Positions 32,563 through 60,788 of a DNA stretch of 64,000 nucleotides are shown piece after piece; the stretch's first letter is position 1; each line of letters begins with the position of its first letter. Source of the stretch: a bacterium (GTDB lineage Bacteria; Patescibacteriota; Patescibacteriia; UBA9570); assembly GCA_030698395.1 (NCBI GenBank), contig JAUYKW010000027.1, forward strand, positions 3,174 through 67,173, given 5' to 3'. The notes under the pieces are model-generated. The model was not told the DNA's origin. It did not search any database and saw only the letters and a list, made by a program, of their open reading frames with translations. A program made the position numbers and the translations under genes.

Positions 32563-33665
32563 GAAGATATATTTAATTCTCGTTTTTTAATCTCTGCTCC
32601 ACCTATTACTGTAGCACCATCATAGAACACTGCAAACTGCCCAGGAGTAACAGCACGTTCTGCTTCATGTAAAAGAACTTTGCTACCATCAATAGTACAA
32701 GGCACATCCGGAGAACGATAGCGCACCTTTACAGTACAATCAAACTTATCTGCTGGTCTATTTCCTGCTATCCAAAAATCATCCTCAATTGTAAACCAAG
32801 TTGATAACAAACTAGGATGATCGGTGCCCTGACAAATTATTAAAGTATTATTTTTAATATCTTTTTCCACTACAAAATATGGTCCTGTACCACCTATTTC
32901 CAATCCATACCGCTGTCCAATAGTATAATACGCCAACCCTTTATGTTCGCCCATATTTTTTCCCTCCACAGTAATCATGGATCCCGGTTTATGCGGTACG
33001 TATTGCTCCAAAAAAGTCCGAAATTCAATATCTCCAATAAAACATAATCCTTGACTATCCTTTTTATCAGCAACCGGCAAATTATAAGCCTGAGCTGCTT
33101 TTCTTACGTCTGTTTTCTGCATATGCCCAATTGGGAACAAAATTTTTGATAGCTGTTCTTGAGTAAGATGATAAATAAAATATGTTTGATCTTTATTTGC
33201 ATCTGCTCCCCTTTTCAATTGCCACATACCACTCTCGTTCTGTGAAACTTGAGCATGATGACCTGTTGCTACCTTATCAAATCCAGCTACCTCTGCTTTT
33301 TTTAAAAATGACTTAAATTTTATTTCAGTGTTGCACATTACATCAGGATTAGGTGTTTTTCCTTTTTTATACTCAGATAAAAAATACTCAAACACCTTAT
33401 CTCTATATTCTCGTTCAAAATTTATAATTTCACATGGTATGTTTAGAGTTTTACAAATTTCCTGTACATCTTCATATTCTTCTAACCAAGGACACTCATC
33501 TTTTCGATAGTTTACTTCTCCTACATCGGTCCAATTTTTCATATAATATCCAGTCACATCATAACCTTGCTCCACCAATATTGCGGCTGCCACGGCAGAG
33601 TCCACGCCGCCACTAAGAGCGACTGCAACCTTATTGTGATTTCTATTATCGTGTGCTATAGTCAT
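32559..33665 (-). CDS. mnmA: tRNA-specific 2-thiouridylase MnmA
   Basis: 368 aa. PP-loop SGGVDSAV near the N-terminus, catalytic Cys residues, C-terminal beta-barrel. Confidence 0.9.
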
Positions 33666-33674
33666 ACGCGTACT

Positions 33675-34571
33675 ATGACTAAAAAGAATACAACTGTAAA
33701 GAAAAATACCCTCAAGCTAAAAGCTGGATTAGCTCAAATGCTTAAAGGTGGAGTGATTATGGATGTAGTAACTCCAGAACATGCAAAGATAGCTGAGGAT
33801 GCTGGAGCAGTTGCAGTAATGGCCCTAGAACGTGTACCAGCTGATATCAGAGCCACTGGTGGTGTTGCCAGAATGAGTGATCCAAAGTTGATTAAGCAAA
33901 TCATGAAAACAGTCTCTATTCCAGTAATGGCAAAGGTAAGAATTGGCCATTTCGTAGAGGCACAAATACTTGAATCACTAGGTGTAGACTACATTGATGA
34001 ATCAGAAGTTTTAACACCAGCAGACAATGATTATCATATTAACAAAAATATATTCGACGTCCCTTTTGTATGCGGATGCAGAAATCTAGGCGAGGCTTTA
34101 AGACGAATTAATGAAGGAGCTGCCATGATTAGAACAAAGGGTGAAGCTGGAACTGGCAATATTGTGGAAGCTGTAAAACATATCAGAACATTATCCGAAG
34201 GTATTGAGGCTATTCAACACATGAATGAATCGGGGTTAAAAAAGATGGCCGTAGAAATGCGTGTACCTGTTGAATTATTAAAACAGGTAAAAAAACTAGG
34301 TAGATTACCTGTTGTTAACTTCGCAGCTGGCGGTATAGCAACTCCGGCAGACGCTGCTTTAGCAATGCAATTGGGAGTTGATGGAGTATTTGTAGGTAGT
34401 GGAATATTCAAATCAAAAAATCCAACTAAAAGAGCAATGGCAATTGTAGAAGCAACAACTCATTATCAAGATCCAGATATTCTTGCAAAAATATCTGAGA
34501 ACCTAGGAGCACCTATGACCGGCATCGACATGGATGATGTTGCAGTCAAAATGGCAGAACGAGGAAACTAG
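33675..34571 (+). CDS. pdxS: pyridoxal 5'-phosphate synthase, lyase subunit PdxS
   Basis: Start is the ATG at 33675 (MTKKNT...). The track ORF from 33567 carries a 36-aa non-homologous leader that overlaps mnmA. Protein [13 protein letters not shown]...[20 protein letters not shown] is canonical PdxS. Confidence 0.9.
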
Positions 34572-34572
34572 T

Positions 34573-35154
34573 ATGTCAAAACCTATCGTTGGTGTACTAG
34601 CCTTACAAGGCGACTTCGTAGAGCATGTGGAAATTTTACATTCCTTAAATATTCCAACACAAGAAGTGCGGAATATAAGTGATGCAAACATGACCGCTGG
34701 TTTAATAATTCCTGGGGGTGAAAGTACCGCCATCGGAAAATTATTAAAATCAACAAAACTAGACAAGTGGATAAAAAATAATGCAACTAACGGTTATCCA
34801 GTCTTTGGAACTTGTGCTGGATGCATTTTGATAGCCCAAGATGTAGATTCAGAATATTCATTAAAACTAATCGATATTACTGTCAGCCGTAACGCATATG
34901 GCAGACAATTAGATTCGTTCGAAACTATACTTACTGGTACAAAATTAAAAAATGTACATGGTATATTTATTAGAGCTCCTAAGATAACTAAAGTTAGTAG
35001 CACTGTTAACATTCTATTAAAATACAAAAAAGAACCAGTTTTGGTTCAACAAGATAATATCTTAGCCGGTACCTTCCATCCAGAACTCTCAACAAACGCC
35101 GTAGTCCATGAGTATTTTGCTAAACTAGTAAAAAAATTTAATTACCACGAATAG
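34573..35154 (+). CDS. pdxT: pyridoxal 5'-phosphate synthase, glutaminase subunit PdxT
   Basis: Start is the ATG at 34573 (MSKPIVGVLALQGDFVEH...), 2 nt after the pdxS stop. Class I GATase with catalytic Cys in GTCAGC. Confidence 0.85.
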   Translation: MSKPIVGVLALQGDFVEHVEILHSLNIPTQEVRNISDANMTAGLIIPGGESTAIGKLLKSTKLDKWIKNNATNGYPVFGTCAGCILIAQDVDSEYSLKLIDITVSRNAYGRQLDSFETILTGTKLKNVHGIFIRAPKITKVSSTVNILLKYKKEPVLVQQDNILAGTFHPELSTNAVVHEYFAKLVKKFNYHE

Positions 35155-37168: not shown

Positions 37169-37190
37169 GAAAAAAGTATAGCACAGATTG

Positions 37191-38861
37191 ATGTTTTGGT
37201 ATATAATTAATTCGATGGCAAAAAAACAAGGAGGCATCCTACAAAACCTTAAACTAACACAGAAAATATTCTTTATTTTTGTGTTAATGATTATCTTGGT
37301 GATTAATTCATGGGCATTTACTTTAACGACGGTACTAGATTTTCAAGAAAGTTTTTCCAAAGTAGAAACCTACGCATTTCCAAGTATTATTAAAACTTCA
37401 CAATTGAAAGATCATTTGCACATTGCATTGCTCGGTGTCTATAATTATATAAATACTGGTGATGAAGCGAGTAAACTAGTATACCAAGAGCAATTTACAG
37501 AAGCTATCAGAGCAGAATATGATTTGTTTCAGTTATCGGAAACATCAACAGATTTCATTTTCACACAACAATTTAACGAAAAATTATTAGCGATCTACAA
37601 TACAACTGATGAACTTGTAACTACATATGAGTTTGACCCTACATCTTCTGATGTTACAGAAAAATTAAGCCAATTGAATGGTTTAAGAGATGATTTTAAT
37701 ACATTTTTAAAGGATGAAATAACTACCCAAGTTGAACAACAAATTACCAATGCTAATGAGGGCATTAATTCTACAGTACAACAAATCCAATACTATTTAA
37801 TTGGTGTAGCAGTAATAGTTCTACTAATTATCATATTTATCTTGATTTTCATATCAAATAATATTACGAAGCCAGTAGCAATCTTAACTAAAGCAGCAGA
37901 AGAATTTGGTAAAGGTAAATTCGAAAAGGTTGAGATTAAGCATAATGATGAGCTGGGTCTATTTGCTAAGACGTTCAACAAAATGGCAAAAGATATTCAA
38001 TCTAGCCAAAAAGCATTGCAAGAAGAATTAGAAAAAACCAAAGAGCTAGATAGACAAAAATCTGAATTTCTTTCTGTGGCTGCTCATCAACTACGTACAC
38101 CTATGGCTGGTATCAGATGGGCCTCACAAATGCTATACGACGGAGACATGGGGAAACTTAACGAAGAACAAAAGCATCATCTAGGTGCAGGTTTGGATAA
38201 CATTAATAGAATGATCAAGTTAATTAATGATTTACTTGATGTCACAAAAATTGAAGAGCAAAAATTCAACTATACTTTTGTAAAAAGTGATATTACTTTA
38301 GCTGTTCAAGAAATTATAGACAGACTACAAGACCAAGCCAATGCCAAAAAGGTTAAAGTAACTCTAGATGCACCAAAAACATCTTTGTTGATTGAATTTG
38401 ATAAAGAAAAAATGGATATGGCATTGAACAACCTACTTGATAACGCAATAAAATACAGTAAACCAAGTGGACATGTTGACATTTCAATAAAAAAATCTAA
38501 GGATGGAATTGAATGTACGGTTCAAGATGATGGAATTGGAATTCCAGATAAGTCTCAAAATGAAGTATTTACGAAATTTTTTAGAGCTCCAAACGCTATG
38601 AAAGTATTCGCTGATGGCAGTGGACTCGGACTATATATGTTACAAGATATTATACATAAACATGAAGGTAATATCTCGTTTAAATCTAAAGAAGGTGAAG
38701 GCACTTCGTTTACTTTTTACTTACCAAAAACTCAACTTATATCGAAAAACAACATCAAAGCAAAGATGCTTGTAAGTGACGAAAATCAGACAGAAAAAAA
38801 ATCTACTGACGACTCAGAAAATTCAGAAAGCACTGAAGAAAAAGTCGAAGAAGAGAGCTAA
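37191..38861 (+). CDS. sensor histidine kinase (orphan, no adjacent response regulator)
   Basis: About 555 aa. Two TM segments flank a ~150-aa sensor domain. HAMP domain. HisKA H-box SVAAHQLRTP. HATPase N-box (DNAIKYS), G1 (DDGIGIP) and G2 (GSGLGL). Start is the ATG at 37191 or 37215. Confidence 0.75.
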   Translation: MFWYIINSMAKKQGGILQNLKLTQKIFFIFVLMIILVINSWAFTLTTVLDFQESFSKVETYAFPSIIKTSQLKDHLHIALLGVYNYINTGDEASKLVYQEQFTEAIRAEYDLFQLSETSTDFIFTQQFNEKLLAIYNTTDELVTTYEFDPTSSDVTEKLSQLNGLRDDFNTFLKDEITTQVEQQITNANEGINSTVQQIQYYLIGVAVIVLLIIIFILIFISNNITKPVAILTKAAEEFGKGKFEKVEIKHNDELGLFAKTFNKMAKDIQSSQKALQEELEKTKELDRQKSEFLSVAAHQLRTPMAGIRWASQMLYDGDMGKLNEEQKHHLGAGLDNINRMIKLINDLLDVTKIEEQKFNYTFVKSDITLAVQEIIDRLQDQANAKKVKVTLDAPKTSLLIEFDKEKMDMALNNLLDNAIKYSKPSGHVDISIKKSKDGIECTVQDDGIGIPDKSQNEVFTKFFRAPNAMKVFADGSGLGLYMLQDIIHKHEGNISFKSKEGEGTSFTFYLPKTQLISKNNIKAKMLVSDENQTEKKSTDDSENSESTEEKVEEES

Positions 38862-42979: not shown

Positions 42980-44143
42980 TTAATATTTTTCTATAAACTC
43001 TGTCATTCGTTTTAAAGCCTCTTGAACATTCTCCAATGAACTTGCAAATGATAATCGAACAAAACTATCACGACCAAAATACTTTCCAGGAACCAATGCA
43101 ACGCCAAATTCAGTTAATAAAGTCTCACAAAAAATTTCTGAATCTTCAGTGATCTCGCTAATGTCAAGAAAACAATAAAAAGCTCCAGCGGGATCCGTTA
43201 ATGAAATTTTATTATTTGCATCTACCCATTCAATAACTACTTTGCGCCGACGTGCCAATTCAAGCAAGATGTTATCCAAAGAATCTGGCTTCATATTCAA
43301 CGCAGGCAAACTGGCAAACTGAGCTATGTTACATACATTTCCCGTTAGATGAGATTGCAACACTGTCATCGCATCAATAACGTTCTCAGGTCCAGCTGCA
43401 AAACCAACTCTCCATCCTGTCATTGATCCTGATTTAGATACACCATTTATTACAATAGTTCTTTCTGGATATATTTTTGCAAATGATATGAATTTTGAAT
43501 CATCATAAAGTAACTTGCTATATATTTCATCGCTAATAACCCAAAGATTGTGTTCACGTGCAAAATCAGCAATTTTTTCTAACTGTTCCAAATCGTAAAC
43601 TGCCCCTGTAGGATTATTTGGGTAATTTAATATGATACCGACAGTTTTTTCTGTTACAGCAGTATTAAAAGCATCAATGTCTAACTGAAAATCATCTGTG
43701 GTCTCTACTGCTATTACTACACCATCTGCTAACTTAATTTGCTGAGAATAACTTACCCATCCTGGTACAGGTACCAAGACCTCGTCTTCCGAATTAATTA
43801 ACACTTGCAAACAACTATATAATGCTTGCTTTGCACCATTTGTAATAATAATCTGGTTATCGTTGAAATCTAAATCGTAATTATTAGATAAAAAATTACA
43901 CACAGCAGAACGAACCTGAGGTAATCCCTGTGGTTTTGAATAATGATTATTATTTGCATCTATCGCATCCTTAGCAGCGTCTAGTACTTCATTTGATGTT
44001 TCAAAATCAAGCTCTCCAGCTGTAAGATTTATCACATCTTGCCCCTGCTGTGCCAAATCTTTTGCTAGAGAATCCAAAAGAATTGTCTGTGACGCCTTAA
44101 TACCAGTGATCCGGCCGGCTGGCTTAATCATAAAGCTCTTCAC
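42980..44143 (-). CDS. PLP-dependent aminotransferase class I (aspartate/aromatic type)
   Basis: 387 aa. NYPNNPTG and SKSGSMTGWRVG (PLP-lysine) motifs. Confidence 0.8.
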   Translation of the reverse strand: MKSFMIKPAGRITGIKASQTILLDSLAKDLAQQGQDVINLTAGELDFETSNEVLDAAKDAIDANNNHYSKPQGLPQVRSAVCNFLSNNYDLDFNDNQIIITNGAKQALYSCLQVLINSEDEVLVPVPGWVSYSQQIKLADGVVIAVETTDDFQLDIDAFNTAVTEKTVGIILNYPNNPTGAVYDLEQLEKIADFAREHNLWVISDEIYSKLLYDDSKFISFAKIYPERTIVINGVSKSGSMTGWRVGFAAGPENVIDAMTVLQSHLTGNVCNIAQFASLPALNMKPDSLDNILLELARRRKVVIEWVDANNKISLTDPAGAFYCFLDISEITEDSEIFCETLLTEFGVALVPGKYFGRDSFVRLSFASSLENVQEALKRMTEFIEKY

Positions 44144-45728
44144 GCTTTTCTCGGATATAACCTAACCAATCCTCAAATACTTCTATAATTAATTTAAATG
44201 GTGCTTCGATAATAACATCTAATATAAATACAAATACATTTATCTTTGAAAAATTTACCGACAACCAATGTCCTGCTCTGATAACTGGAATTGCAAAAAA
44301 ATCTATTGTAGCGCTAATAATATTATCCTTCCTATCAACCACTACTAGATCTTTCGCTAACTGCCTTACTCTGAAGCCAAAAAAGCTTACGAGAGTTAAG
44401 AATAATACAAATAGCAACATACCAAGCCAGTTAAACCCAATCATGAATAACAATAATAAAATTCCACCGAATGTCACGAAATAAGCCAAAACGTAAAAGA
44501 GTTTAAATAGCAAACTCGTAAACCCACTTCGAGCAGCTTTTGGTTTAACCTGGTATTTAATATCCTTATCCGGATAACTATATATCAAGTCTTTTACACC
44601 CTCCTTGATTTTTTCTGTATTTTCTTTTGCAGGTATGTGTACAACTAAAGCAATGATGAATAAGAGTGTTGGATGGAAAATTACATTTATCGCAATTGGA
44701 ATGTAATTGAGATGACCAAGAATAAATAGATCATAAGGTAATTCAATTATCAAAGCCAACATCATTTTTGTAATTATAATATATATAATACTCCTAATAC
44801 TAGTTCTTCTTAATTTAGATTTTACTGTTTTATACTTTTCCGTTGCAGCTTCTTCTACTTCATCTTCTAATCTTTCTACATCTTGCAATAAGTCTAATGG
44901 ATCATCATGTTTAGAAAGAACATCAGCTAAAATAAGGAATAAAATATTTACCTTTTTCAATTGTCTAATCAACCGATCTTGTAATGGATGATTAATTTGT
45001 TTTTCAATTGTTGCCTTAACGTTTAGAACATTTTTCGCTACTCGATTTATGGTATCTTCTTTATTATCTTTCCAGTCAGGATAAAAATATTTCAACAAAT
45101 GATAACTAGTCAAATCAAAATCATATTGAGCATAGGTTCGTAATGTTGCAGAATAAATCTGTACCTTCCGCTCATCTGCAGTAATATTTTTTGATTTAAT
45201 TTCAACTCTTTCCAACATAGTAAGGTAAACAAATTCAAGCATACCTTGTTTTTGCCAAGAAAATGAAAGTAAATCTTCCAATTCGCAAGCTAACATTGTA
45301 AGAGTCCAATCAAATACCCCTTCTCGTTGTTCTTGTTCTAATGGCGGAATAGCCTTATTAAGAAACCTTGCATACTTGGTTATAACTTTTGTTACATCAT
45401 CAACGATAGATTCTGGATATGAATTATTCTGGATATACCCTCCTCTAATTAATTCTGATAGTAAGGGTCCTGAAATCAATGCTGGATCTTCCCCTGGAAT
45501 AAATTTTCTACGTAATATTCTCTCTATTGCAGATTTAATAATCAAATTCTCTTCTTGATAATCAACTGAATTTCTAATTTTCTCATAAAAAAAAGCCAAC
45601 CTACCAATAGCCTCACTTATCTTTAGCTTTGATACGTTTACACGAGCTTCCTCCTCGTGTGTTTCTTTATTGTAGCTTTTTATAAGCCTTTGTACTGCTA
45701 CTGGAACAGTGTAATGAGTATCTGACAT
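44124..45728 (-). CDS. hypothetical protein with ~300-aa soluble N-terminal domain and C-terminal polytopic membrane domain
   Basis: 534 aa. No motif I can assign. 5 to 6 predicted TM helices in the last 230 aa. 20-nt overlap with the aminotransferase gene. Confidence 0.4.
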   Translation of the reverse strand: MSDTHYTVPVAVQRLIKSYNKETHEEEARVNVSKLKISEAIGRLAFFYEKIRNSVDYQEENLIIKSAIERILRRKFIPGEDPALISGPLLSELIRGGYIQNNSYPESIVDDVTKVITKYARFLNKAIPPLEQEQREGVFDWTLTMLACELEDLLSFSWQKQGMLEFVYLTMLERVEIKSKNITADERKVQIYSATLRTYAQYDFDLTSYHLLKYFYPDWKDNKEDTINRVAKNVLNVKATIEKQINHPLQDRLIRQLKKVNILFLILADVLSKHDDPLDLLQDVERLEDEVEEAATEKYKTVKSKLRRTSIRSIIYIIITKMMLALIIELPYDLFILGHLNYIPIAINVIFHPTLLFIIALVVHIPAKENTEKIKEGVKDLIYSYPDKDIKYQVKPKAARSGFTSLLFKLFYVLAYFVTFGGILLLLFMIGFNWLGMLLFVLFLTLVSFFGFRVRQLAKDLVVVDRKDNIISATIDFFAIPVIRAGHWLSVNFSKINVFVFILDVIIEAPFKLIIEVFEDWLGYIREKREELYD

Positions 45729-45785
45729 TGTTATATCATAGCATTTTTAAAGCATTTTGTCCAGTTTAAAGCCTATTAAGCCTAT

Positions 45786-48700
45786 TTATTGGCATTTTTT
45801 TATAATTTTATCCAGCATTTTTTTTCTAGATTCATTCCAAGATAACAACACTGGAAATACTAATAGCGTACCTAATGTAGAGAAAATTAATCCCGCAATT
45901 AAACTAGTTCCTAAGCCTCTCCAAAAAAGATCATTGAGTGTAAGTGGTAAAATACCAAATACTGTCGTAATAGAAGTTGATAAAATTGGTTTGAATCTCG
46001 CTTTTCCAGTTTCTATCATTGATTTAGTAGTAGACCACTTCTCATTCTTTGCACTTATTCTATTAAAATAATCAACAAAAACAATTGCATCATTAACCAC
46101 AATTCCAACCAAAGCGATGATGCCTAAACCGGAAACCATATTTATTGATTCGTTGATAAAACTCAAGGCTGGAAATACACCAATCATTGCTAATGGAATC
46201 GTAAATAATATTAATCCTGGTTGGATGAAAGAGTTAAATTGATACACCAAAATCAAATACACAGCTATAACAGCTATAATAAAAACTAATAATAAATTAT
46301 TATAATTTTCATTCATAGATGCTGTGAATCCGCCATATGAAACATCTTCAGCTGACAAATTAAACTCTTCTAAATGTTCTTCAGTTAAGTAATCTTTTAC
46401 TAATTGTTCTATATCTTTTGAATCTGTATCATCTGACACTCGAGCGGACACCTTCGCAACTCGTAACTCATCTAATCTTTGAATTTGTTGCAAACTTTCT
46501 ACCTCAGTAATATCTGCTACCTTATCTAAGGTTACATCTTCTAGCGGCGTAGAAAAAAGCACTAACTCACGAGCATCCGCCAAAGAATTTTTTGATTCTT
46601 CATCTAATGCAAGAATTACATCATCTGAAACTCCGTCAGTTCCTATGCTAATTTTGCCAACTTGCGTTTCACTAAAAGCCAGATTCACCATCATACTTAC
46701 ACTCGCATTATCTAGATTGTATTTCTCTAACTCTTCTTCATTAAAATCTATTTCGTAATCAGTCATCATGGCGTCACTCCAAGAATTTTTAACCTGTACA
46801 ACGCCCATTTCATTTTCTAAAAACTCAGTTAAATCCGCAGAAGCATCTGTAAGACCATCCATATCATCCCCTCGTAATTCAACAATGACATCAAAAGGAT
46901 CTGTCGGTGGTCCAATCGACACGGATTCTGCAGTAACGACTATCCCCTGTTCTGCTAGAGATTTTGTTACGCTAGCAATCTCCTCTTCTAATTTATCGCC
47001 CAGAGCATAAATATCTGGACCATCTGGTCTATTGGTTGGTTCACTAAATATAACGGATACGCTATTTTCTTCATATATAAAATAACTATGAAAATGTTCC
47101 GTGCCAACTGCTTTATCTAAAACGGAAATAGTCGCAGCCTTTTTTTCATCAGCTGAAATTTGCTTAGGAAAATCAAAATTTAATTTAACTTCCACATTAT
47201 CAACTTTTGGAAATTGTTCGAACGGTAACTCCTGGCCAAAACTTAATACACTTACAGCAATTAACGTAACGCCAGTTAATACCAACATTGCTTTAGTCCA
47301 CCACTTGGCAAAAAGATGCGTAATAATTAAGCCATAAATATCTTCAAGGAAATCAACCAATTTTTGACCATAAAATATAATTACTGGAAGCACAAACATT
47401 TTTTGCAGAACAGACAACTTTCGTTTCTTCCTTTGCTCCTTAGTTTCTTCCTTCATCAAAAAAATGGACAATACCGGTGTTATGGTAATAGCCAAGAAAA
47501 ATGATGCTATCAACATTATTATGATGGTATAAGGAATGAATCGTAAAAACGCACCAACAACTCCTGAAATATTAGCAAAAGGTATAAACACTACGAGTGT
47601 TGTTAAAGTAGCTGCAGTTACCGGCGGACCAAGCTCTTTCATAGCAGAAGCTACTGCCAACTTCTTATTTTGGCCATTTTCTATATTATGAGTTACTCCT
47701 TCAGCAATAACAATTGCATTATCTACAATAATTCCTAATACCAATAACATTGCAAACAAAGTAAGAATGTTTATCGTATATCCTAAGGCGAATAAAGCTG
47801 CTAGCGTAATCAAAAATGCTAGCGGAATAATCGTAGCCACGATAATACCAGTTCGGAAATTAATAAACAGCATCAGAACTAACAGAATCAAAAATAAACC
47901 ATACCAACCATTTGTAAGTAAGTCACCTATTTGTTTTTCAACATATTTAGAGTTATCAAATACAGGTGCTAAATCTACATTATTTGGTAATATCTTATCT
48001 GCATTAATATGTTCCGCTTCCGCTGCAATATCTTCAGAAATACTTATTGCATCACCTTTATCACCCGTATAAATTATTAACATTACCGCCGATTTTGACT
48101 CCGGTATATCATTGAGTAAATATCCAGCATGATTTACTTGATCCTCATCGTAAGTTCTCATGCTAATTGAAGCGATATCCGATAATACAACATCCTGAAT
48201 TTGGACATCTTCAAAATCTGACAATTTTGTTACATTTGATGTAAAAATTAAGTTCATGTCCTGACCATCATCTACCGCAAGAACACCACCTGGAATACTC
48301 AATAAGGTAGATTGTAATACTTGTTGAACCTCAGTCAATGTTAAACCCTTGTCCTTTAATTTCTCTTCATTTAGAGCAATGACAATTTCATTCTTTATTT
48401 CAGGCGATATATCAATTTTATCTATACCAGCTGAGGCGGTTAAAAAATGTTCTCTAACAAGCTCTGCTTCGTTCTGTAATTCCGAAATATTTGTAGTGTC
48501 ACTACCAAGCGCATAGATTAGCAAAGGGCCGATGGGATCCTCAGTCTTTACCTCAATCTTGGCATCACTAGTTAATCCAATTTCTTTTATATTCTTTTCG
48601 ATCTCGTCAATAGCCACATCTACCTGATCCACCTCTTGCATTTCAACTCCTAACCAACCACCATTATCATATGAAATTGATCTTAAATATTTTAGTCCAT

Positions 48701-48929
48701 CTAAATCCCCAATAGATTGCTCAATAGGTATTACAACTTCTTTTTCAACATCATTAGAAGCAGCTTGCGGATATGTTACATATATTGAGATGTAATTAGA
48801 TGATATTTGCGGAAAATCCTGACGATAGTTATTTGTAGCACCAAAAATACCAACTGCAATTATTGCAATAACTAATAATATTGTTGTTTTGTATCGATTA
48901 ATAAAAAAATTTGACCACTTTCCAATCAT
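45786..48929 (-). CDS. RND/MMPL-superfamily transporter (12-TM, two large extracytoplasmic loops)
   Basis: 1047 aa. Duplicated 6-TM plus large-loop architecture typical of AcrB/MMPL. No adjacent membrane-fusion or outer-membrane partner. Confidence 0.75.
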   Translation of the reverse strand: MIGKWSNFFINRYKTTILLVIAIIAVGIFGATNNYRQDFPQISSNYISIYVTYPQAASNDVEKEVVIPIEQSIGDLDGLKYLRSISYDNGGWLGVEMQEVDQVDVAIDEIEKNIKEIGLTSDAKIEVKTEDPIGPLLIYALGSDTTNISELQNEAELVREHFLTASAGIDKIDISPEIKNEIVIALNEEKLKDKGLTLTEVQQVLQSTLLSIPGGVLAVDDGQDMNLIFTSNVTKLSDFEDVQIQDVVLSDIASISMRTYDEDQVNHAGYLLNDIPESKSAVMLIIYTGDKGDAISISEDIAAEAEHINADKILPNNVDLAPVFDNSKYVEKQIGDLLTNGWYGLFLILLVLMLFINFRTGIIVATIIPLAFLITLAALFALGYTINILTLFAMLLVLGIIVDNAIVIAEGVTHNIENGQNKKLAVASAMKELGPPVTAATLTTLVVFIPFANISGVVGAFLRFIPYTIIIMLIASFFLAITITPVLSIFLMKEETKEQRKKRKLSVLQKMFVLPVIIFYGQKLVDFLEDIYGLIITHLFAKWWTKAMLVLTGVTLIAVSVLSFGQELPFEQFPKVDNVEVKLNFDFPKQISADEKKAATISVLDKAVGTEHFHSYFIYEENSVSVIFSEPTNRPDGPDIYALGDKLEEEIASVTKSLAEQGIVVTAESVSIGPPTDPFDVIVELRGDDMDGLTDASADLTEFLENEMGVVQVKNSWSDAMMTDYEIDFNEEELEKYNLDNASVSMMVNLAFSETQVGKISIGTDGVSDDVILALDEESKNSLADARELVLFSTPLEDVTLDKVADITEVESLQQIQRLDELRVAKVSARVSDDTDSKDIEQLVKDYLTEEHLEEFNLSAEDVSYGGFTASMNENYNNLLLVFIIAVIAVYLILVYQFNSFIQPGLILFTIPLAMIGVFPALSFINESINMVSGLGIIALVGIVVNDAIVFVDYFNRISAKNEKWSTTKSMIETGKARFKPILSTSITTVFGILPLTLNDLFWRGLGTSLIAGLIFSTLGTLLVFPVLLSWNESRKKMLDKIIKKCQ

Positions 48930-50743: not shown

Positions 50744-51262
50744 TTAGATTAATTTAGAAATGATTGCTTGGCAGAATGCTGGCAAATCATCTGGCTTACG
50801 AGAAGTTATTATATTACCATCAACGACAACTTCTTCATCTGAATAAATTCCGCCAGCATTAATTATGTCATCTGCAATTGCATCATAACAAGTACATTTT
50901 TTTCCCTGAATTATTCCTGCTGAAGCAAGCATCCATGCCCCATGACAGATTGATGCAACTAATTTACCAGCGGTATTCATATCTTTCACAAAATCTATCA
51001 TATCTCGATTCTTTCTCATCAAATCTGGAGCAAAACCACCTGGTATTAACACGGCATCAAATTCATCTATTTTTGCTTCCTTAATATCAATATCGCTTTC
51101 TACTGGATATCCATACTTACCCTTATACTTGTGAGCTTTTTTTATACCCACAATGACTGGTTTAATCCCTTCTTCACGTAGCCGATAGAATGGATACCAT
51201 AGCTCTAAATCCTGATATAGATCCTCAACTAATATTGCTACACGTTTATTTGATGATTCCAT
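50744..51262 (-). CDS. DJ-1/PfpI family protein
   Basis: 172 aa. Nucleophile elbow ICHGAWML. Confidence 0.8.
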   Translation of the reverse strand: MESSNKRVAILVEDLYQDLELWYPFYRLREEGIKPVIVGIKKAHKYKGKYGYPVESDIDIKEAKIDEFDAVLIPGGFAPDLMRKNRDMIDFVKDMNTAGKLVASICHGAWMLASAGIIQGKKCTCYDAIADDIINAGGIYSDEEVVVDGNIITSRKPDDLPAFCQAIISKLI

Positions 51263-51294: not shown

Positions 51295-52290
51295 TCACAA
51301 CTCTCTAATTGCGTGTTCAATCCTACGAGTTGCATCTTCATATGACTCTGATTTATCTACAAAATACAAAGGCTTGCCGAATTTTATTGATACTGAGTGT
51401 CTTTTAGAGAAAATGCTCTTTTTTGAACCATAGATAAATGCTGTTCCTTTTATTCTAACCGGAATAATTGGCACATTCATTAAAGATGCCATTAAACCAG
51501 CCCCTCTCTTAAATTCATTCATTGTATCGGAATGACTAACTCTACCTTCTGGAAACAAAGCCACAGACCAACCTCTGTCTAATAGAGCCCCCGTATAATT
51601 GAAACCAGATTTAATATCTTCATTTTCTTTACGAGGAAAAGGAAATGCATTAAAAAAAAGTTGTATTGCTGGCAGATATTTTCTAAATTCTCCAAAAATA
51701 GAATCCTTTGCAGCTGCATAGGCTAATCTATTTCTTACTTTTATATTCAATGCTGCCGATAAAAAAATACCATCAAATAGACTAATGTGATTAGACATGA
51801 TTATTACCGGATATTTCACGTCCTTAAAATTATCTTGATCTGCAACTTCTAATTTCGTCACTAATCTCATTAAAGGAAAGAAAAAAAAGCTCTGGCCCAC
51901 ATATCTTATTATCCTAGCAAATAGGCTTAATGGCCATTCCTTTATTTTTAATCTTTTTTCAACAGGATTCGCTACGTTAATTAAAGCCAATAAATCAGTA
52001 ACACTTGTTTTTGCTGTAATGTTAACTTCCGGAACTGTTACACCGAACACATCTTCAATTCTAGTAACCAATTCTATTCGTAAAATAGAATCTAACTGCA
52101 AATCACGCACTAATACTGTATCAGATGCAATATCTTTAGCATTAGTATCTGTAATTGCCGCTAGTAATGCAACTAGCTGGGGCAATTGTTCATCTTTCTG
52201 CATGGATACGTTTAATGATTTCACCTTTTTTAACTTTTCTGGTAGCTGATCGAGGAAAATCTTCCTCTTTCCAAACTGACCAGTTTGCAA
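51295..52290 (-). CDS. acyl-carrier-protein domain fused to PlsC-type lysophospholipid acyltransferase
   Basis: N-terminal ~80 aa carry an ACP-like DLQLDSILRIEL (DSL phosphopantetheine site). C-terminal domain carries the HxxxxD acyltransferase motif (NHISLFDG) and PEGR-like FPEGRVS. True start may be the ATG at 52203, which reduces the overlap with the ligase gene to 11 nt. Confidence 0.65.
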   Translation of the reverse strand: MQTGQFGKRKIFLDQLPEKLKKVKSLNVSMQKDEQLPQLVALLAAITDTNAKDIASDTVLVRDLQLDSILRIELVTRIEDVFGVTVPEVNITAKTSVTDLLALINVANPVEKRLKIKEWPLSLFARIIRYVGQSFFFFPLMRLVTKLEVADQDNFKDVKYPVIIMSNHISLFDGIFLSAALNIKVRNRLAYAAAKDSIFGEFRKYLPAIQLFFNAFPFPRKENEDIKSGFNYTGALLDRGWSVALFPEGRVSHSDTMNEFKRGAGLMASLMNVPIIPVRIKGTAFIYGSKKSIFSKRHSVSIKFGKPLYFVDKSESYEDATRRIEHAIREL

Positions 52291-53752
52291 TCTGCTGATA
52301 TGACGCTAACTGCTCATTCGTTCTTTGTACCAATTCCTCTGAGGTAGAATTATTATCTTTCTCAAACAGCAATACAGCATGTATTTCTACTCGTCCAGAT
52401 TCTTTCTCTAAACCAATCACACAACTGTCTTTAATTTCCGATAACTCATTAAGTTTTTGTTCGATATCCTCAGGAAAAACATTTTGCCCCCCTGGACCAA
52501 GAATCATATATCGTTTACGCCCGTTGATATAAATATAACCATCAGAATCTATCTTTCCAAGATCGTCTGTTTTAAACCACCCATCTTCAGTAAATGCTTC
52601 TTTTGTTTTTTCTGTGTTCTTATAATATCCTTGAAAAACACTTGGGCCTTTCACTAAAATTTCACCATCATCTGCAATTTTAACTTCAACACCTGATAAG
52701 ACTTTACCAATAGAACCCCTACGATGTGCCATTAACGTATTCATTGATACTACTGGTGACGTTTCCGTGAGTCCATATCCCTGCAATAAGGTTATCCCTA
52801 ACGCATTCCACTTATCTTCAAGTTTTGGATCTAAAGGTGCGCCACCAGAAGCTACGATACGTAACTTACCACCGAATGATTTGTGCACAGAACTAAATAA
52901 CAACCTTTGTAGTAGTCTAATTTTTATGGTATTAGATATCTTCATCATTTTCTGCATTAATTCTTTTTTCCCATCTTCCTCTGCCTTAGCCTCTATCTTA
53001 GACATTACAATACTTAAAAACTCAGGAACCCCAAGCATCTTTGTAACGTGATGCTCCTTCAAAAGATCACTAATAGCAGTAGGCACGTGAGCATAAACAA
53101 TTTTTGCAGATTTATAGCAAGGCAACAAAAAACCTATTACCTGCTCATAAATATGACTGAGTGGTAAAATAGATAAAAATACATCGGTATCGTCAACAGG
53201 AATTGCTTCAGAAACAGCTATAACATTTGATATTACATTTTTATGACTCAACAACACTCCTTTTGGATCTCCCGTAGTTCCAGAAGTATACATAATGATT
53301 GCAATGTCTTCCTCAGTTGCCGTTACTGGGACAAACTCATTGTCTTTGTATGATTCAATAGTTTGCTGTAAATCTTCGACTTGATAAACTGCCAATTCAT
53401 CAGTAATATCTTCTGTAAATTTATTATTTGAAAAAATTATTTTTGCCTCAGTTTGTTTAGCAATCTTATTAATCATCTCTCCTGTACTTTGGGTATTTAA
53501 AGGAACTAATACTGAACCATTTAATAAACAGCCCCAATATACACATAGCCAATTGGGAGAATTTGGAGCCAATAACAAAACTTTATCTCCTACACCAATG
53601 TCTTGTTCTTTCAAAAATACTGCGGTACTTTTTGCCATCTTGTAAATATCCTGATATGACAGTTCAACATTTCTATAACCAACTTTAATAATGGCTGCTG
53701 TTTTATCTGGGGTTTGTTTTGCAGAATTAATTATGAAATCTGTAAGTATCAT
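52190..53752 (-). CDS. AMP-forming acyl-CoA/acyl-ACP synthetase (fatty-acid ligase)
   Basis: 520 aa. AMP-binding motif YTSGTTGDPKGV and motif II region (GYGLTETS). Confidence 0.8.
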   Translation of the reverse strand: MILTDFIINSAKQTPDKTAAIIKVGYRNVELSYQDIYKMAKSTAVFLKEQDIGVGDKVLLLAPNSPNWLCVYWGCLLNGSVLVPLNTQSTGEMINKIAKQTEAKIIFSNNKFTEDITDELAVYQVEDLQQTIESYKDNEFVPVTATEEDIAIIMYTSGTTGDPKGVLLSHKNVISNVIAVSEAIPVDDTDVFLSILPLSHIYEQVIGFLLPCYKSAKIVYAHVPTAISDLLKEHHVTKMLGVPEFLSIVMSKIEAKAEEDGKKELMQKMMKISNTIKIRLLQRLLFSSVHKSFGGKLRIVASGGAPLDPKLEDKWNALGITLLQGYGLTETSPVVSMNTLMAHRRGSIGKVLSGVEVKIADDGEILVKGPSVFQGYYKNTEKTKEAFTEDGWFKTDDLGKIDSDGYIYINGRKRYMILGPGGQNVFPEDIEQKLNELSEIKDSCVIGLEKESGRVEIHAVLLFEKDNNSTSEELVQRTNEQLASYQQIANWSVWKEEDFPRSATRKVKKGEIIKRIHAER

Positions 53753-53758
53753 AATTAA

Positions 53759-54115
53759 TTAGTCATTTAATAAAAAAACTGCTGATGCTATTGCATAGTC
53801 ACCATCATGACTAATTGATATATCATGCGATAAAATTTCCGCTTCACCTTCATATTTCAAAATAGGATGGCCAGTTTTGCTGTAACGAATTCCTATTTGT
53901 TTCCAATTCCCTGCTTCTAATCCCAGTGCTTTAATTACCGCTTCTTTGGCGGCAAAAACACCTGCCAAATGCTGTGCAGAATTTGATACAGTCAATTCTT
54001 CCACTTGAAATATCTTATCTAGAAAATCTTGTCCCGAATTTTTTTTTGATTTTTCAAATTTCTTTATGTGTACAATGTCACAACCTGTTTTGATTTTCAT
54101 GTATGTATTATGCAC
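53759..54115 (-). CDS. acpS: holo-ACP synthase (4'-phosphopantetheinyl transferase)
   Basis: 118 aa. GCDIVHIKKF (GxDxxE/H) and FAAKEAVIKALG motifs. Confidence 0.8.
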   Translation of the reverse strand: MHNTYMKIKTGCDIVHIKKFEKSKKNSGQDFLDKIFQVEELTVSNSAQHLAGVFAAKEAVIKALGLEAGNWKQIGIRYSKTGHPILKYEGEAEILSHDISISHDGDYAIASAVFLLND

Positions 54116-54137
54116 TATTTATATAAAATTCACAAAC

Positions 54138-54167
54138 AAAAAAGAGGCCTAACTTGGCCCCTTTTTT
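54138..54167. terminator. weak intrinsic terminator-like hairpin flanked by A6 and T6, downstream of the major pilin gene
   Basis: AAAAAAgaGGCCtaacttGGCCccTTTTTT. A 4-bp GGCC/GGCC stem with a 6-nt loop, symmetric A/T runs, in the 66-nt gap between pilin and acpS. Confidence 0.3.
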
Positions 54168-54181
54168 GTTCTTATATAGGG

Positions 54182-56918: not shown

Positions 56919-59900
56919 TTAGCGATAATTTATTATTACATCTTCTAAAATTGGCGTAGAAATTCCATCGCCTGTAAATTCTGCACGATACTGCACCCAT
57001 TGATTACCATTTAAAGCTGTAGGAGGTAACATACCATTTTGATCTGTAAAATAAGTTCCTGCACCTGTAGCACCAAACCAAGATGTCCATGTTCCTGGAG
57101 CGCCAGTTACATCTGGTGCAGTGCGCAATTGGAATTGTATTGTACAACTAGGCGAACATGCAGGTAATACCTCTGACCATTCAATCACTTGCAAAGGTGA
57201 AGTGTCCGTCATGTCAAAAGCAGATGAAGTTAGTGTGCCTGAGGTAGTATAGGTGCCAGTGCTCGTACGGGTAAACTTCATGAATAAACCAGCATCACCA
57301 ACAGTCCAACCCTCTGTACTATCTCCTCTTGAAATGTCATTTAAATTCGTCGTAGTTGGAGATGTAAATAACGCCCAATCAATTCCATTATAAACCATTA
57401 ACGTACCTGCATCACCAACGGCCCAGCCATCATTCGTTGCTATCATATCAATACCATTCAAATTGTTAGTAGTTTGTGAAATTCTAGACACCCAACTAAT
57501 ACCATTCCAGTAAATTATCACACCACCATCGCCCATCGCCCACGCATCACTGCTACTAACCATGTAAACCGCATTAAGATTATTTCCAGTTGGAGATGTA
57601 ACTGTACTCCATGCAGAGCCATTCCACTGTACAATTGTTCCTGCAGCGCCAACAGCCCAACAATCCGAACTCGATATACAATCAACGTCATTTAGGATAT
57701 TACCCGTGGGAGATGTTGCCGTAGACCAACTAGTACCATTCCAAGTAGCTATTGTTCCAGCATCACCAACTACATAAGCTACAGAGCTATTTACAGCTTC
57801 TACACCATTTAGACCATTACCGGTTGGCGATGTAACTGTACTCCAAGTACCAGTACTATACTGCACAATCGTACCTAACGCACCTACTGCCCAACCATTA
57901 TTTACATCTATAAATGTAAGATCGTATATATTATTGCTTGTCGGTGAGGTGTCAGACGTCCAGGCAACGCCATCAAAACTAAACAACGTACCAACGTTAC
58001 CTCCGGCATATCCTACAGTAGATGAAATCATATCTACAGCATTTAAGTTTTGAGTTGTTGGATTGTTATAGTTCACCGTAAGTTCTTCCAATACTGAGGT
58101 GAAATTAGCATCGGTTGTTGTGAATGTAACAAAATACTGTAAATACCTACCGTTAGGAGAAATTATTGGTTCCCCGCTTGGATTTGAATAAGCACCAGAG
58201 TATGCAGACCAACTTGCATCTGGTACAGCCACCTCACCAGTACGGGAATCGATTGATAGATTGGTTGCTGGGTTAGTGGTGTCTTCCACCCAAGAAATCC
58301 AATCCCATGTTGCTCCTGCACTGCCACTATCTATAATTGAAGATTCAAATGTACCAGTTAAAAAATAAAGATTACTGTACTGAATAAATGTAGATTGAGC
58401 ACCTGCAGCCCATACATTGGTGCTAGCTACCATATTTACAGTATACATATTTTTTGCGGTGGGAGATGTTACAGTAGCCCAAGCAGATCCATTCCATTGT
58501 AGTAAAGCACCACCTGCACCAACGGCCCAAGCATCAGATGCATTTAGTATAAAAATGTCATACAAAGCACTACCAGTTGGCGAGGTTACAGTAGCCCAAG
58601 CAGATCCATTCCACTGAATAATTACACCATCTGCACCAACGGCCCAGCAATTGTTTGAAACGGAACAATGAACCCCATTGAGGGCGCTACCAGTTGGAGA
58701 AGTTACAGTAGCCCAGGCAGATCCATTCCATTGGATAATTACTCCACCCGCGCCAACCGCCCAGCAATCCGAAGTTGATACACAATGAACCCCATTGAGG
58801 GCGCTACCAGTTGGAGAAGTTACAGTAGCCCAGGCAGATCCATTCCATTGGATAATTACTCCACCCGCGCCAACCGCCCAACCATCGCTACTAGATACCA
58901 TTGAAACGCTACTTAAAAGACTGCCAGTAGGAGATGTTTGAGTAGCCCAGGTACTGCCATTGTAATATATTATTGTACCTGACTGACCAACTGCCCAGCA
59001 GTTAGCTGTATCGGCACAATTAACTCCCTGTAAATTACTAGTTGTCGGTGAAATTACACCAAGCCAATCCACACCATTATATTCATAAATCGTTCCTCTG
59101 TTAGCTACAGCCCAGCCATCGCTGGCATCAATCATATCCAAACTATTTACATCTTCGTTGCCTAATGATGATGTTAAATCAGACCAAACGGAACTATTGT
59201 ATCGTACCAACAAAGGTTGCTTATTTTTACCACCCACTGAATGAACATCAATAGCAGATAACGCTTCAATATCTTTAAGGGTATCTATAGCAACTGCAGG
59301 AGTAACATCATTCCAAGTAGTTCCGTTCCATTCAAGAATTTTTCCGGTTCCTGTTGTTCCGCCAGATATATATCCAGAACTAGCTGAAAGCATGGATACT
59401 CCGTATAAAATTCTGGTTGTAGGACTAGATTGAGTAAACCAAGTAGAGCCATTGTAATAAATAATTTCACCACCAGCTCCAGCTGACCAACAATTAGATG
59501 TATCATAGCAATCAATTCCATTCAACTGCTTTGTAGTTGGTGAGCTAAAAGAACTCCAACTTGTGCCATTCCATTGTAATATTTCGCCTTGCCAGCCAAC
59601 TGCCCAGCCATCTGACGCTGATACAAAATCCACTCCAAAAAGGTTTCTGGAAGTAGGCGAACTAAAACTAGTCCAAATAGCACCGTTCCATTTCAAAATT
59701 GTTCCGCCATCACCCACTATCCAACCATCACTTGCCGAAATCATTTTTATTGCGTTTAAATCGGATGTTGTACCAGAAGTAACAGTAGACCATGTGACTC
59801 CGTTCCAATGTATTATGACTCCACTTACGCCAATGGCCCATATATTATTAGCCGACACTATGTCAATTGATAATAACTCTGTAGACACTCCACTGCTAAC

Positions 59901-60788
59901 ACCGGTCCAACTGGTTCCATTCCACTTCAGAATGGCACCATTATCTCCAACAGCGTAGCCTAAAGAGGTAGATAAAAAATCCAATCCATTCATAGATTCC
60001 TGAGTTATAACATCGCCAGTTGGAGCAAATACACCCCAGTCAACAGATTGACTAATGGTTATGCTTGCATCGGCTCCAATACCATTTATCTGCGTGTCCG
60101 TTAGTGTTCCAGCGCCAAAGTCTGTATCAGATGTATGTGTAGCATTACTGCCACCACCAGGTATCCATTGATCAAGATTTCCTGACGAAACACCAGTTAA
60201 ACTAATTTGTCCAGCCCTTGTGAAGTCTATATTGCCATCACCTGAATCATACATAGTTGCATCAGACCAGATGGATTGTCCAGAACCGCCAGACCAATCC
60301 GTCTGTGTCCATTCATCTGCATCCCAATTAGTTATATAGCCAATATACTCTTCACTACTTGTTTGGCCTACTGTATTTTCCCATGAAACTGTTACCATAA
60401 TTTGCTTGCTATGAATATCCAAAGTATCACCACCTACACCGCAAGTTACAATATCAAAACTTACATTTCTACATACATCAGCAAAAGAAATTGTTCTCGT
60501 AAAATTACCGATAATTTCACTTGTACCTTCACCATCAAATACCCATTCACTCCCAGAAACAGAAACCGAAGATTGATCATATTCTACGCGATTCCAAGAA
60601 TCATCATGAATCGCGCGCACGGCCTCATAGCCTTCTCTTGCTAAAGCAGTTGCTTCTGCTCTCTGCTGTCCACCGATAGTTCCAGCAAAGCTACCTAGAA
60701 TTGTAGAAACCAAAGCGCCAGCTATAAATGCAAAAATTGCTAGAGCTAATAAAATTTCTACAACTGATTGTCCGGAACGATTTTTCAT
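56919..60788 (-). CDS. giant pilin-like protein: prepilin N-terminus plus about 20 beta-propeller blades plus two paralogous ~90-aa modules
   Basis: 1289 aa. N-terminus MKNRSG|QSVVEILLALAIFAFIAGALV is a class III signal with E+5. From about aa 250 there are ~39-aa repeats of the form WAVGxxGxIIxWNGxxWxxVTSPTxxxLNGV (two runs of 14 and 6 blades). Each run is followed by a related module ending ...LEELTVNYN or ...LEDVIINYR. Confidence 0.7.
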   Translation of the reverse strand: MKNRSGQSVVEILLALAIFAFIAGALVSTILGSFAGTIGGQQRAEATALAREGYEAVRAIHDDSWNRVEYDQSSVSVSGSEWVFDGEGTSEIIGNFTRTISFADVCRNVSFDIVTCGVGGDTLDIHSKQIMVTVSWENTVGQTSSEEYIGYITNWDADEWTQTDWSGGSGQSIWSDATMYDSGDGNIDFTRAGQISLTGVSSGNLDQWIPGGGSNATHTSDTDFGAGTLTDTQINGIGADASITISQSVDWGVFAPTGDVITQESMNGLDFLSTSLGYAVGDNGAILKWNGTSWTGVSSGVSTELLSIDIVSANNIWAIGVSGVIIHWNGVTWSTVTSGTTSDLNAIKMISASDGWIVGDGGTILKWNGAIWTSFSSPTSRNLFGVDFVSASDGWAVGWQGEILQWNGTSWSSFSSPTTKQLNGIDCYDTSNCWSAGAGGEIIYYNGSTWFTQSSPTTRILYGVSMLSASSGYISGGTTGTGKILEWNGTTWNDVTPAVAIDTLKDIEALSAIDVHSVGGKNKQPLLVRYNSSVWSDLTSSLGNEDVNSLDMIDASDGWAVANRGTIYEYNGVDWLGVISPTTSNLQGVNCADTANCWAVGQSGTIIYYNGSTWATQTSPTGSLLSSVSMVSSSDGWAVGAGGVIIQWNGSAWATVTSPTGSALNGVHCVSTSDCWAVGAGGVIIQWNGSAWATVTSPTGSALNGVHCSVSNNCWAVGADGVIIQWNGSAWATVTSPTGSALYDIFILNASDAWAVGAGGALLQWNGSAWATVTSPTAKNMYTVNMVASTNVWAAGAQSTFIQYSNLYFLTGTFESSIIDSGSAGATWDWISWVEDTTNPATNLSIDSRTGEVAVPDASWSAYSGAYSNPSGEPIISPNGRYLQYFVTFTTTDANFTSVLEELTVNYNNPTTQNLNAVDMISSTVGYAGGNVGTLFSFDGVAWTSDTSPTSNNIYDLTFIDVNNGWAVGALGTIVQYSTGTWSTVTSPTGNGLNGVEAVNSSVAYVVGDAGTIATWNGTSWSTATSPTGNILNDVDCISSSDCWAVGAAGTIVQWNGSAWSTVTSPTGNNLNAVYMVSSSDAWAMGDGGVIIYWNGISWVSRISQTTNNLNGIDMIATNDGWAVGDAGTLMVYNGIDWALFTSPTTTNLNDISRGDSTEGWTVGDAGLFMKFTRTSTGTYTTSGTLTSSAFDMTDTSPLQVIEWSEVLPACSPSCTIQFQLRTAPDVTGAPGTWTSWFGATGAGTYFTDQNGMLPPTALNGNQWVQYRAEFTGDGISTPILEDVIINYR
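58439..58906. repeat. 117-nt (39-codon) tandem repeats inside the giant pilin gene; the two central copies are near-identical
   Basis: 58673-58789 and 58790-58906 share an identical stretch of about 91 nt (ccccattgagggcgctaccagttggagaagttacagtagcccaggcagatccattccattggataattactccacccgcgccaaccgccca). Copies at about 58556 and 58439 are roughly 80 to 85% identical. They encode ...WAVGAGGVIIQWNGSAWATVTSPTGSALNGVHC... blades. Confidence 0.7.

Follow-up and report, generated by a model that had tools for sequence, protein, structure and literature searches.

A naturally split ligase–carrier–acyltransferase enzyme in a patescibacterial genome, with a proposed role in the use of scavenged fatty acids

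The bifunctional Aas protein of Escherichia coli (b2836) acts as a 2-acyl-glycerophosphoethanolamine (GPE) acyltransferase and as an acyl-ACP synthetase. Its domains are arranged in the order acyltransferase–synthetase, it has no acyl carrier protein (ACP) domain of its own, and it uses free AcpP and is paired with the LplT flippase. ElbD of Myxococcus xanthus (Q1DC43), an enzyme of ether-lipid biosynthesis, is organised as fatty-acyl reductase (FAR), acyl-CoA synthetase (ACS), ACP and acylglycerol-phosphate acyltransferase (AGPAT) domains (PMC9131029, reviewing Lorenzen et al. 2014). The activities of its ACS and ACP domains were confirmed in vitro (PMC9131029). Here we describe a module that shares features with both enzymes. 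It consists of three consecutive minus-strand open reading frames (ORFs) that occupy positions 51295–54115 of a 64,000-nt stretch of contig JAUYKW010000027.1, referred to below as the window. A preliminary description of this stretch had assigned a phosphopantetheinyl transferase (PPTase), an AMP-forming ligase and a carrier–acyltransferase protein to three consecutive genes; all were found where it had placed them, with Pfam matches above cutoffs. The ligase and carrier–acyltransferase genes together are a fission form of a widespread tri-domain enzyme of about 825 aa, cut in the linker between ligase and ACP. We propose, with a probability of about 0.6, that in this split form the enzyme provides a route from scavenged fatty acid, by way of the carrier, to membrane glycerolipid.

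Fission was evident from comparison with relatives. The best 120 homologues of the ligase were 50–63% identical to it, and about 115 of these carried AMP-binding, PP-binding and Acyltransferase domains together. Almost all of these relatives are single proteins of ~825 aa with the order ligase–ACP–acyltransferase; their sources are Patescibacteria (among them Wolfebacteria and Liptonbacteria), Dependentiae/Babeliales (TM6) and some Verrucomicrobiota. Annotation names them 'AMP-binding protein' or 'long-chain acyl-CoA synthetase'. In a scan of GTDB species genomes, a single ORF of 828–939 aa contained all three domains in nine of 11 related loci. The ACP–acyltransferase (ACP-AT) part of the module was 33–45% identical to family members. 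An exhaustive HMMER search with the 302-aa ACP-AT protein, using clusters at 50% identity, gave 153 representatives at E ≤ 1e-30. Proteins of at least 780 aa made up 84 of the best 150 ACP-AT representatives, and about ten looked like complete ACP-AT didomain proteins; close didomain relatives of the 302-aa protein were very few. In the fused relatives, the ACP always sits between the ligase and the acyltransferase. The window has the same three domains in the same order, but spread over two adjacent, overlapping genes encoding 520 and 302 aa, a departure from the single-polypeptide form of the family. The ACP-AT protein, at first described as a fusion of an ACP with a PlsC-type enzyme, is thus not a new fusion, but what remains after fission of the ~825-aa protein.

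The same arrangement was present in an orthologous locus of a Kerfeldbacteria metagenome-assembled genome (MAG; locus L001), with a ligase 58% and an ACP-AT protein 41% identical to those of the window. The split point is homologous and has the same 14-nt overlap (window, cATGcagaaagaTGA; Kerfeldbacteria, cGTGcaaaacggTGA), and the gene order around the module is partly common to the two. In a third split contig (L016) the break falls at the same site, and the overlap there is 4 nt (ATGA) and uses a different frame. Fused homologues read through the ligase–ACP linker. A sequencing or assembly artefact was rejected, because identical proteins occur in independent assemblies and because the homologous split recurs at 41–58% identity in Kerfeldbacteria and again in L016. 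The split is real, inherited and maintained. One further locus, L017:5001-7297, is split differently, into ORFs of 579 aa (ligase and truncated ACP) and 186 aa (acyltransferase core). These ORFs lack about 55 residues, in which the last part of the ACP and the anchor helix would lie; the locus may represent gene decay or a misassembly, and it was dropped as evidence for a second independent split point.

Two gene starts were revised. The program-made ORF for the ACP-AT gene (51295–52290) has a TTG start, encodes 331 aa and overlaps the ligase gene by 100 nt. Its true start is almost certainly ATG 52203, giving 302 aa: gene calls in independent assemblies yield the identical 302-aa protein, and in Kerfeldbacteria the orthologue begins at the homologous position. 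Upstream of this ATG, the ACP-AT frame stays open for 29 codons inside the ligase gene (52190–52290, +1 frame), and a +1 shift anywhere within that 100 nt would restore the fused tri-domain protein. The +1 frame is common to the window and Kerfeldbacteria. A programmed +1 frameshift was nevertheless disfavoured, since the overlap in L016 lies in the other frame. For this reason simple fission with translational coupling is preferred, and the open +1 frame is probably a relic of the fission event. The acpS and ligase genes are separated by 6 nt; taken with the 14-nt overlap between the ligase and ACP-AT genes, this spacing fits a co-translated unit.

For acpS, the program-made ORF starts at GTG 54115 (118 aa), and ATG 54100, giving 113 aa, is the more likely start. 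The 113-aa form is called in an independent Logan assembly, and ATG 54100 lies just downstream of a hairpin and a promoter-like site. The terminator-like hairpin (54134–54171), found by consensus scan, has a 16-bp stem followed by a T-run and closes the upstream pilin gene. Promoter-like matches showed no enrichment over shuffled sequences. The interval 54107–54171 is the probable 5′ boundary of an acpS–ligase–ACP/AT transcription unit. Coordinates of the module and its parts are collected in Table 1.

Table 1. Positions of the module genes, their domains and boundary elements, with the transporter genes that adjoin related modules
Feature	Position	Strand	Basis or remark
acpS, group-I (AcpS-type) 4′-phosphopantetheinyl transferase, 113 aa	53759..54100	-	PF01648, TIGR00556
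ANL-superfamily fatty-acid adenylating ligase, 520 aa (predicted)	52190..53752	-	PF00501, motifs, relatives
Overlap of ligase stop (TGA) and ACP-acyltransferase start (ATG), 14 nt	52190..52203	-	comparison with Kerfeldbacteria
Acyl carrier (PP-binding) domain, aa 1-85 of the 302-aa protein	51949..52203	-	PF00550, AcpM alignment, model
Hydrophobic/amphipathic helix, aa 94-115, LFARIIRYVGQSFFFFPLMRLV	51859..51924	-	AlphaFold2 (AF2) model, pLDDT about 96
Lysophospholipid acyltransferase (LPLAT)/PlsC-fold domain, aa 118-302	51295..51852	-	PF01553, conserved motifs, structural match
Terminator-like hairpin (54134-54171) and promoter-like site (54107-54135)	54107..54171	-	pattern matches alone
Conserved major facilitator superfamily (MFS) transporter of the Candidate Phyla Radiation (CPR)	L003:2782-3990, L014:3324-4565, L015:1549-2760, L017:7312-8502		outside the window

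Domain identities, catalytic residues and folds were established, as were the linkage of the genes and their fission from a tri-domain ancestor. Within the 331-aa ORF, the PP-binding domain (PF00550) was matched at residues 38–104 (E = 6.3e-10, 39.6 bits against a cutoff of 20.8) and the Acyltransferase domain (PF01553) at residues 147–281 (E = 1.1e-18, 67.8 bits against a cutoff of 23). The N-terminal region thus scores as a carrier domain above the Pfam cutoff, as had been anticipated, although its attachment motif, given earlier as DSL, actually reads LDS-I. The phosphopantetheine-attachment residue Ser39 (codon 52087–52089) lies within LQLDSILRI, which aligns with the phosphopantetheine serine of AcpM with the DS matched. 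The HxxxxD acyltransferase motif predicted for this protein was found as HISLFD (51772–51789), and an FPEG motif is present at aa 217–220. Across 63 members of the family, Ser39, H139, P218, E219 and G220 were invariant and D144 was conserved in at least 90%.

The AF2 model of the 302-aa protein (pLDDT 92.6, pTM 0.83) was consistent with these assignments. Its N-terminal domain superposed on ACP structures (TMt 0.8–0.86, rmsd about 2 Å). For the C-terminal domain, the top structural match was T. maritima PlsC (5kym; E = 9e-10, TMt 0.61–0.63), and PatA and LpxM were also among the matches, at about 1e-4. A long hydrophobic helix (aa 94–115) separates the carrier from the acyltransferase core; comparison with the N-terminal helices of PlsC suggests a monotopic membrane anchor as its probable role.

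The ligase gave a strong match to AMP-binding PF00501 (E = 1.1e-81). It carries the P-loop TSGTTG (aa 156), GYGLTE (325), GRK (411) and the A10 lysine within RKVKK (505), and its core motifs, including the A10 lysine, were conserved in at least 90% of the 63 family members. The PPTase matched ACPS PF01648 within 53759–54115 (E = 1.2e-13, 51 bits against a cutoff of 25). Among NCBIfam models, it passed the cutoff of TIGR00556 (68 bits against 45.35) and fell just under that of the equivalog TIGR00516 (52.3 bits against 59.8). A protein of 113 aa with a single ACPS domain fits AcpS group I. The acpS gene was directly upstream of the ligase gene in all seven CPR loci examined (window/L013, L001, L003, L014, L015, L016 and L017); in L015 the acpS overlap is 4 nt.

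The genomic setting was surveyed for other routes of lipid synthesis. When about 55 other genes of the window were scanned with Pfam, only housekeeping, envelope and pilus functions came to light, including aminoacyl-tRNA synthetases, ribosomal proteins, RpoA, MreB/MreC/PBP2, glycosyltransferases, an RND pump and a type IV pilus cluster. A phmmer search that took in all ORFs of at least 40 aa in the 64 kb found no homologues of E. coli PlsX, FabH, FabD, FabG, AcpP, FabF or LplT outside the module (best E 0.6). The earlier remark that no genes of the type II pathway that makes fatty acids (FAS II) lie nearby therefore holds over the whole window, on the evidence of both the Pfam scans and phmmer. 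CPR bacteria are reported to lack lipid and fatty acid synthesis (PMC7242380) and TM6 to lack fatty acid synthesis (PMC4776705); it is in these two lineages that the tri-domain family is commonest.

That the host belongs to the CPR/Patescibacteria was concluded from its alanyl-tRNA synthetase (AlaRS) together with the gene order partly common with the Kerfeldbacteria MAG. AlaRS (30524–32305, minus strand) is short, at 593 aa, and is 68–81% identical to relatives from Patescibacteria, the proteins of Kerfeldbacteria and 'Patescibacteria group' MAGs being 76–81% identical. Its next-best matches, from Spirochaetia and Clostridia, are at 60–63% identity.

Taken together, the comparative evidence supports well a relay from AcpS through ligase and carrier to acyltransferase, as predicted from the sequences. 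The natural fusions provide Rosetta-stone evidence that ligase, carrier and acyltransferase act on one another. AcpS would move 4′-phosphopantetheine from CoA onto Ser39 of the carrier. The ligase would use ATP to adenylate a scavenged free fatty acid and would then attach it as a thioester to the phosphopantetheine arm, in trans in this module and in cis in the fused relatives. The acyl group, still tethered, would next reach the neighbouring PlsC-fold acyltransferase, which the hydrophobic helix would keep at the membrane. The HX4D dyad would pass it on to a free hydroxyl on a glycerolipid acceptor, which would be a lysophospholipid or 1-acyl-glycerol-3-phosphate. The net outcome would be the conversion of exogenous fatty acid to membrane phospholipid without FAS II, free AcpP or an acyl-CoA pool. 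We infer the loading of the ACP by the ligase, fatty acid as its substrate, the nature of the acceptor and the lipid-scavenging role from these comparisons. Loading of the ACP is plausible despite the likeness of the ligase to CoA ligases, because the ACS and ACP activities of ElbD have been demonstrated (PMC9131029) and because ANL enzymes other than fatty acyl-AMP ligases (FAALs) take the phosphopantetheine of CoA or of holo-ACP in one pocket (PMC8460268).

Several observations weigh against this proposal. By sequence, the ligase is closest to CoA-forming enzymes, namely malonyl-CoA synthetase, FadD13, MenE and 4CL (NCBIfam, PDB). Its best solved relatives are CoA ligases (E about 1e-46), and none of its 60 best PDB sequence matches is a FAAL structure. 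Judged on this likeness, there is room for acyl-CoA formation by the ligase. The AcpS reaction itself needs CoA as donor, and no PPTase adjoined the module in the Dependentiae and Verrucomicrobiota loci examined. The acyltransferase domain scored equally with Aas-type and AGPAT-type models (65 and 63 bits) and fell under every curated NCBIfam cutoff, and a glycerolipid acceptor is the weakest point of the functional reading. The absence of FAS II, a free acpP and other pls genes was checked over the 64 kb of the window. In vitro work on ElbD failed to demonstrate acyltransferase activity (PMC9131029), and no experimental characterisation of a member of the tri-domain family was found in the literature.

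Alternative explanations were considered with these points in mind, and the nature of the acceptor gave rise to one of them. The relay could be the same but end on a non-phospholipid acceptor, such as a lyso-aminolipid (as for OlsA), a glycolipid or lipoteichoic-acid anchor, a surface polysaccharide or another envelope molecule, in which case the module would decorate the envelope instead of building bulk membrane. PF01553 includes lyso-aminolipid acyltransferases of the OlsA/GlsA type and glycolipid acyltransferases of the PatA type, there were weak NCBIfam matches to OlsA/GlsA (E 0.01–0.06), and glycosyltransferase and envelope genes abound in the window. An acceptor-specific motif could not be assigned, and the structural matches to PatA and LpxM point the same way. 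That to PlsC was, however, far the best, and the top sequence models were of the Aas and AGPAT types. No olsB-like or glycolipid genes were linked to the module in any locus examined, and the family is kept across CPR, TM6 and Verrucomicrobiota, whose envelopes differ, which favours a universal acceptor. A non-phospholipid acceptor thus appears unlikely. The donor side can be questioned in a similar way. Many PlsC/LPLAT enzymes accept acyl-CoA, and with a ligase whose best NCBIfam and PDB matches are CoA ligases, with no FAAL among the top PDB matches, the ligase might be an ordinary acyl-CoA synthetase supplying an acyl-CoA-dependent acyltransferase. The carrier would then be accessory, either regulatory or a remnant of substrate channelling, and not the obligatory acyl donor. 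This would be hard to reconcile with a phosphopantetheine serine that is invariant in 63 divergent members, with a dedicated AcpS gene at all seven CPR loci, and with an ACP always placed exactly between ligase and acyltransferase; nor does it need a FAAL for holo-ACP to be used by an ANL enzyme (PMC8460268). We regard such an acyl-CoA route as quite unlikely.

The remaining two alternatives would assign the module to one of the described systems. An enzyme of an ElbD-type ether-lipid or fatty-aldehyde pathway, as in Myxococcus, would have the same ACS–ACP–AGPAT-like order, and other phyla are noted to have ElbD-like homologues in which the FAR1 domain is missing (PMC9131029). Neither the three proteins nor the ~825-aa relatives have a reductase (FAR/NAD-binding) domain, though, and neither the window nor the related loci showed elbB, elbE, AGPS or carF-like genes. 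We regard this pathway as very improbable. An origin by splitting and re-fusion of Aas/LplT, as the preliminary description had suggested, is the least credible of the explanations. The acyltransferase domain is 28% identical to that of E. coli Aas (E 1e-13) and the ligase 25% identical to its synthetase domain, and a conserved MFS transporter adjoins the module in four other CPR loci. Against an Aas orthologue stand the reversed domain order and the integrated ACP domain. The Aas equivalog models were missed by hundreds of bits: the ACP-AT protein scored 44 and 65 bits with NF005959 (cutoff 886) and NF006386 (cutoff 1221), and the ligase 173. FadD/MenE-like models outscored Aas-like models on the ligase (NCBIfam), the CPR MFS protein is not LplT-like, and the window holds no LplT homologue. 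On this evidence, the proposal of a split and re-fused Aas was abandoned, and transfer of scavenged fatty acid to glycerolipid by a split tri-domain enzyme remains the preferred interpretation.

The MFS gene lies next to acpS and the tri-domain gene in the four CPR loci listed in Table 1, often with an alpha/beta-hydrolase gene, and has no counterpart in the window. The four proteins are mutual orthologues (phmmer, E 1e-150 to 1e-176). Their best NCBIfam match, weak and far under cutoff, was to TIGR00881, the organophosphate:Pi antiporter family (GlpT/UhpT/PgtP). Identity as LplT was rejected, with E 0.36 against E. coli LplT (BLASTP) and generic, weak NCBIfam matches. The transporter could import the acceptor or a precursor of it. 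In two loci of the split, Kerfeldbacteria-like form (L001:11175-12195 and L016:6416-8357), the module is followed by a gene for a PF01161 protein of the PBP/YbhB family (phosphatidylethanolamine-binding protein fold). Serine-hydrolase/alpha-beta-hydrolase genes also follow the module in these loci, and an acylphosphatase gene precedes it.

The source of membrane lipids in CPR/Patescibacteria and TM6/Dependentiae, whose genomes lack fatty acid and complete phospholipid synthesis, is an acknowledged open question. One lipidomic study reported that its CPR genomes yielded no enzymes that produce or require ACP, and that CPR size fractions were enriched in lysolipids (PMC7242380). AcpS with the ligase–ACP–acyltransferase protein is a conserved and easily cloned candidate that is common in exactly these lineages; it would explain the salvage of both fatty acids and lysolipids, and would supply AcpS with a substrate. 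In its natural split form the module also offers ligase and ACP-acyltransferase halves that can be expressed separately, which is convenient for biochemistry. Were the acceptor a lysophospholipid or lysophosphatidic acid, the family would represent a new, self-contained type of acyl activation and transfer, beside Aas, AasS/PlsC and FakAB/PlsX/PlsY. A broader hypothesis may be put forward tentatively, at somewhat less than even odds: the tri-domain family may be the missing membrane-building enzyme of fatty-acid-auxotrophic CPR and TM6 bacteria. Such bacteria would take free fatty acids, together with lyso- or glycerophospho-lipids, from hosts and re-esterify them without FAS II, free ACP or acyl-CoA. 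The AcpS of CPR would be kept solely to prime the tri-domain protein, and the MFS transporter and alpha/beta-hydrolases of other CPR bacteria would supply acceptor and fatty acid.

Other features of the window are recorded here for completeness. The downstream neighbour of the module encodes a DJ-1/PfpI protein (50744–51262). On the minus strand at 44124–48929 are genes for an RND/AcrB-MMPL-like transporter of 1047 aa (E 8e-144), and then for a 534-aa protein without a Pfam match. Such a pump is unusual equipment for a CPR cell without an outer membrane. A link between the module and the pump (45786–48929, four genes away) was considered and rejected, since the pump adjoins the module in no related locus. 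On the other side, the pilus/pseudopilin cluster includes a gene for a 1289-aa protein (56919–60788, minus strand) built from numerous WxxGxxW-type repeats of the beta-propeller (BNR/Ycf48-like) kind. Three consecutive units of this protein are nearly identical (GVIIQWNGSAWATVTSPTGSALNGVHC...), and local GC content is 40–42%, against about 34% elsewhere in the window. Two MreB paralogues are encoded at 9398–10447 and 16662–17666 on the minus strand (E 2.5e-139 and 8.8e-130), along with MreC and PBP2. The sole plus-strand blocks are pdxS/pdxT (33567–35154), a histidine kinase gene (37188–38861), and alr with a D-Ala-D-Ala dipeptidase gene at the start of the window; the remaining genes are on the minus strand. 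GC skew flattens at 34–38 kb.

The tri-domain family is probably the same as the FAR-less ElbD-like homologues, or as the fusions of FAAL-like and lysophospholipid-acyltransferase domains, both of which the literature mentions in passing, without a function. Papers describing the family in CPR or TM6 were not found in the literature. Two systems resemble the module in the logic of carrier loading. In Rhodobacteria, an ACS and a specialised ACP feed serine palmitoyltransferase (SPT), so that a CoA-ligase-like enzyme loads a dedicated carrier for one lipid product (PMC9386255). Polyketide synthases (PKS) and non-ribosomal peptide synthetases (NRPS) are likewise served by FAAL-ACP loading, with a dedicated carrier instead of CoA (PMC8460268). 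In these cases SPT or a PKS lies downstream, rather than an LPLAT, and none of the closest PDB relatives of the module's ligase is of the FAAL type.

For the acyltransferase, the likeness to PlsC of T. maritima (5KYM) extends to the fold, the HX4D and FPEG motifs and the N-terminal hydrophobic helix before the core. Scores with PlsC-type models were well below cutoffs (63.2 bits against 102.95 for TIGR00530, and 16 against 501 for the E. coli PlsC equivalog PRK15018), and the alignment to E. coli PlsC spans just 92 aa. The module would also differ from PlsC in having its acyl donor covalently built in, as predicted from the adjoining carrier. The closest described relatives are ElbD and Aas. 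With ElbD, compared by its described architecture and not by sequence, the module shares the order ACS–ACP–acyltransferase; it differs in having no N-terminal fatty-acyl reductase (FAR1-like) domain or elb operon partners, and in its reduced CPR host. With Aas, it shares two detectably homologous domains (25–28% identity) and, on the module side as a prediction, the coupling of ATP-dependent activation of fatty acid on a phosphopantetheine carrier to HX4D-dependent reacylation of lysophospholipid.

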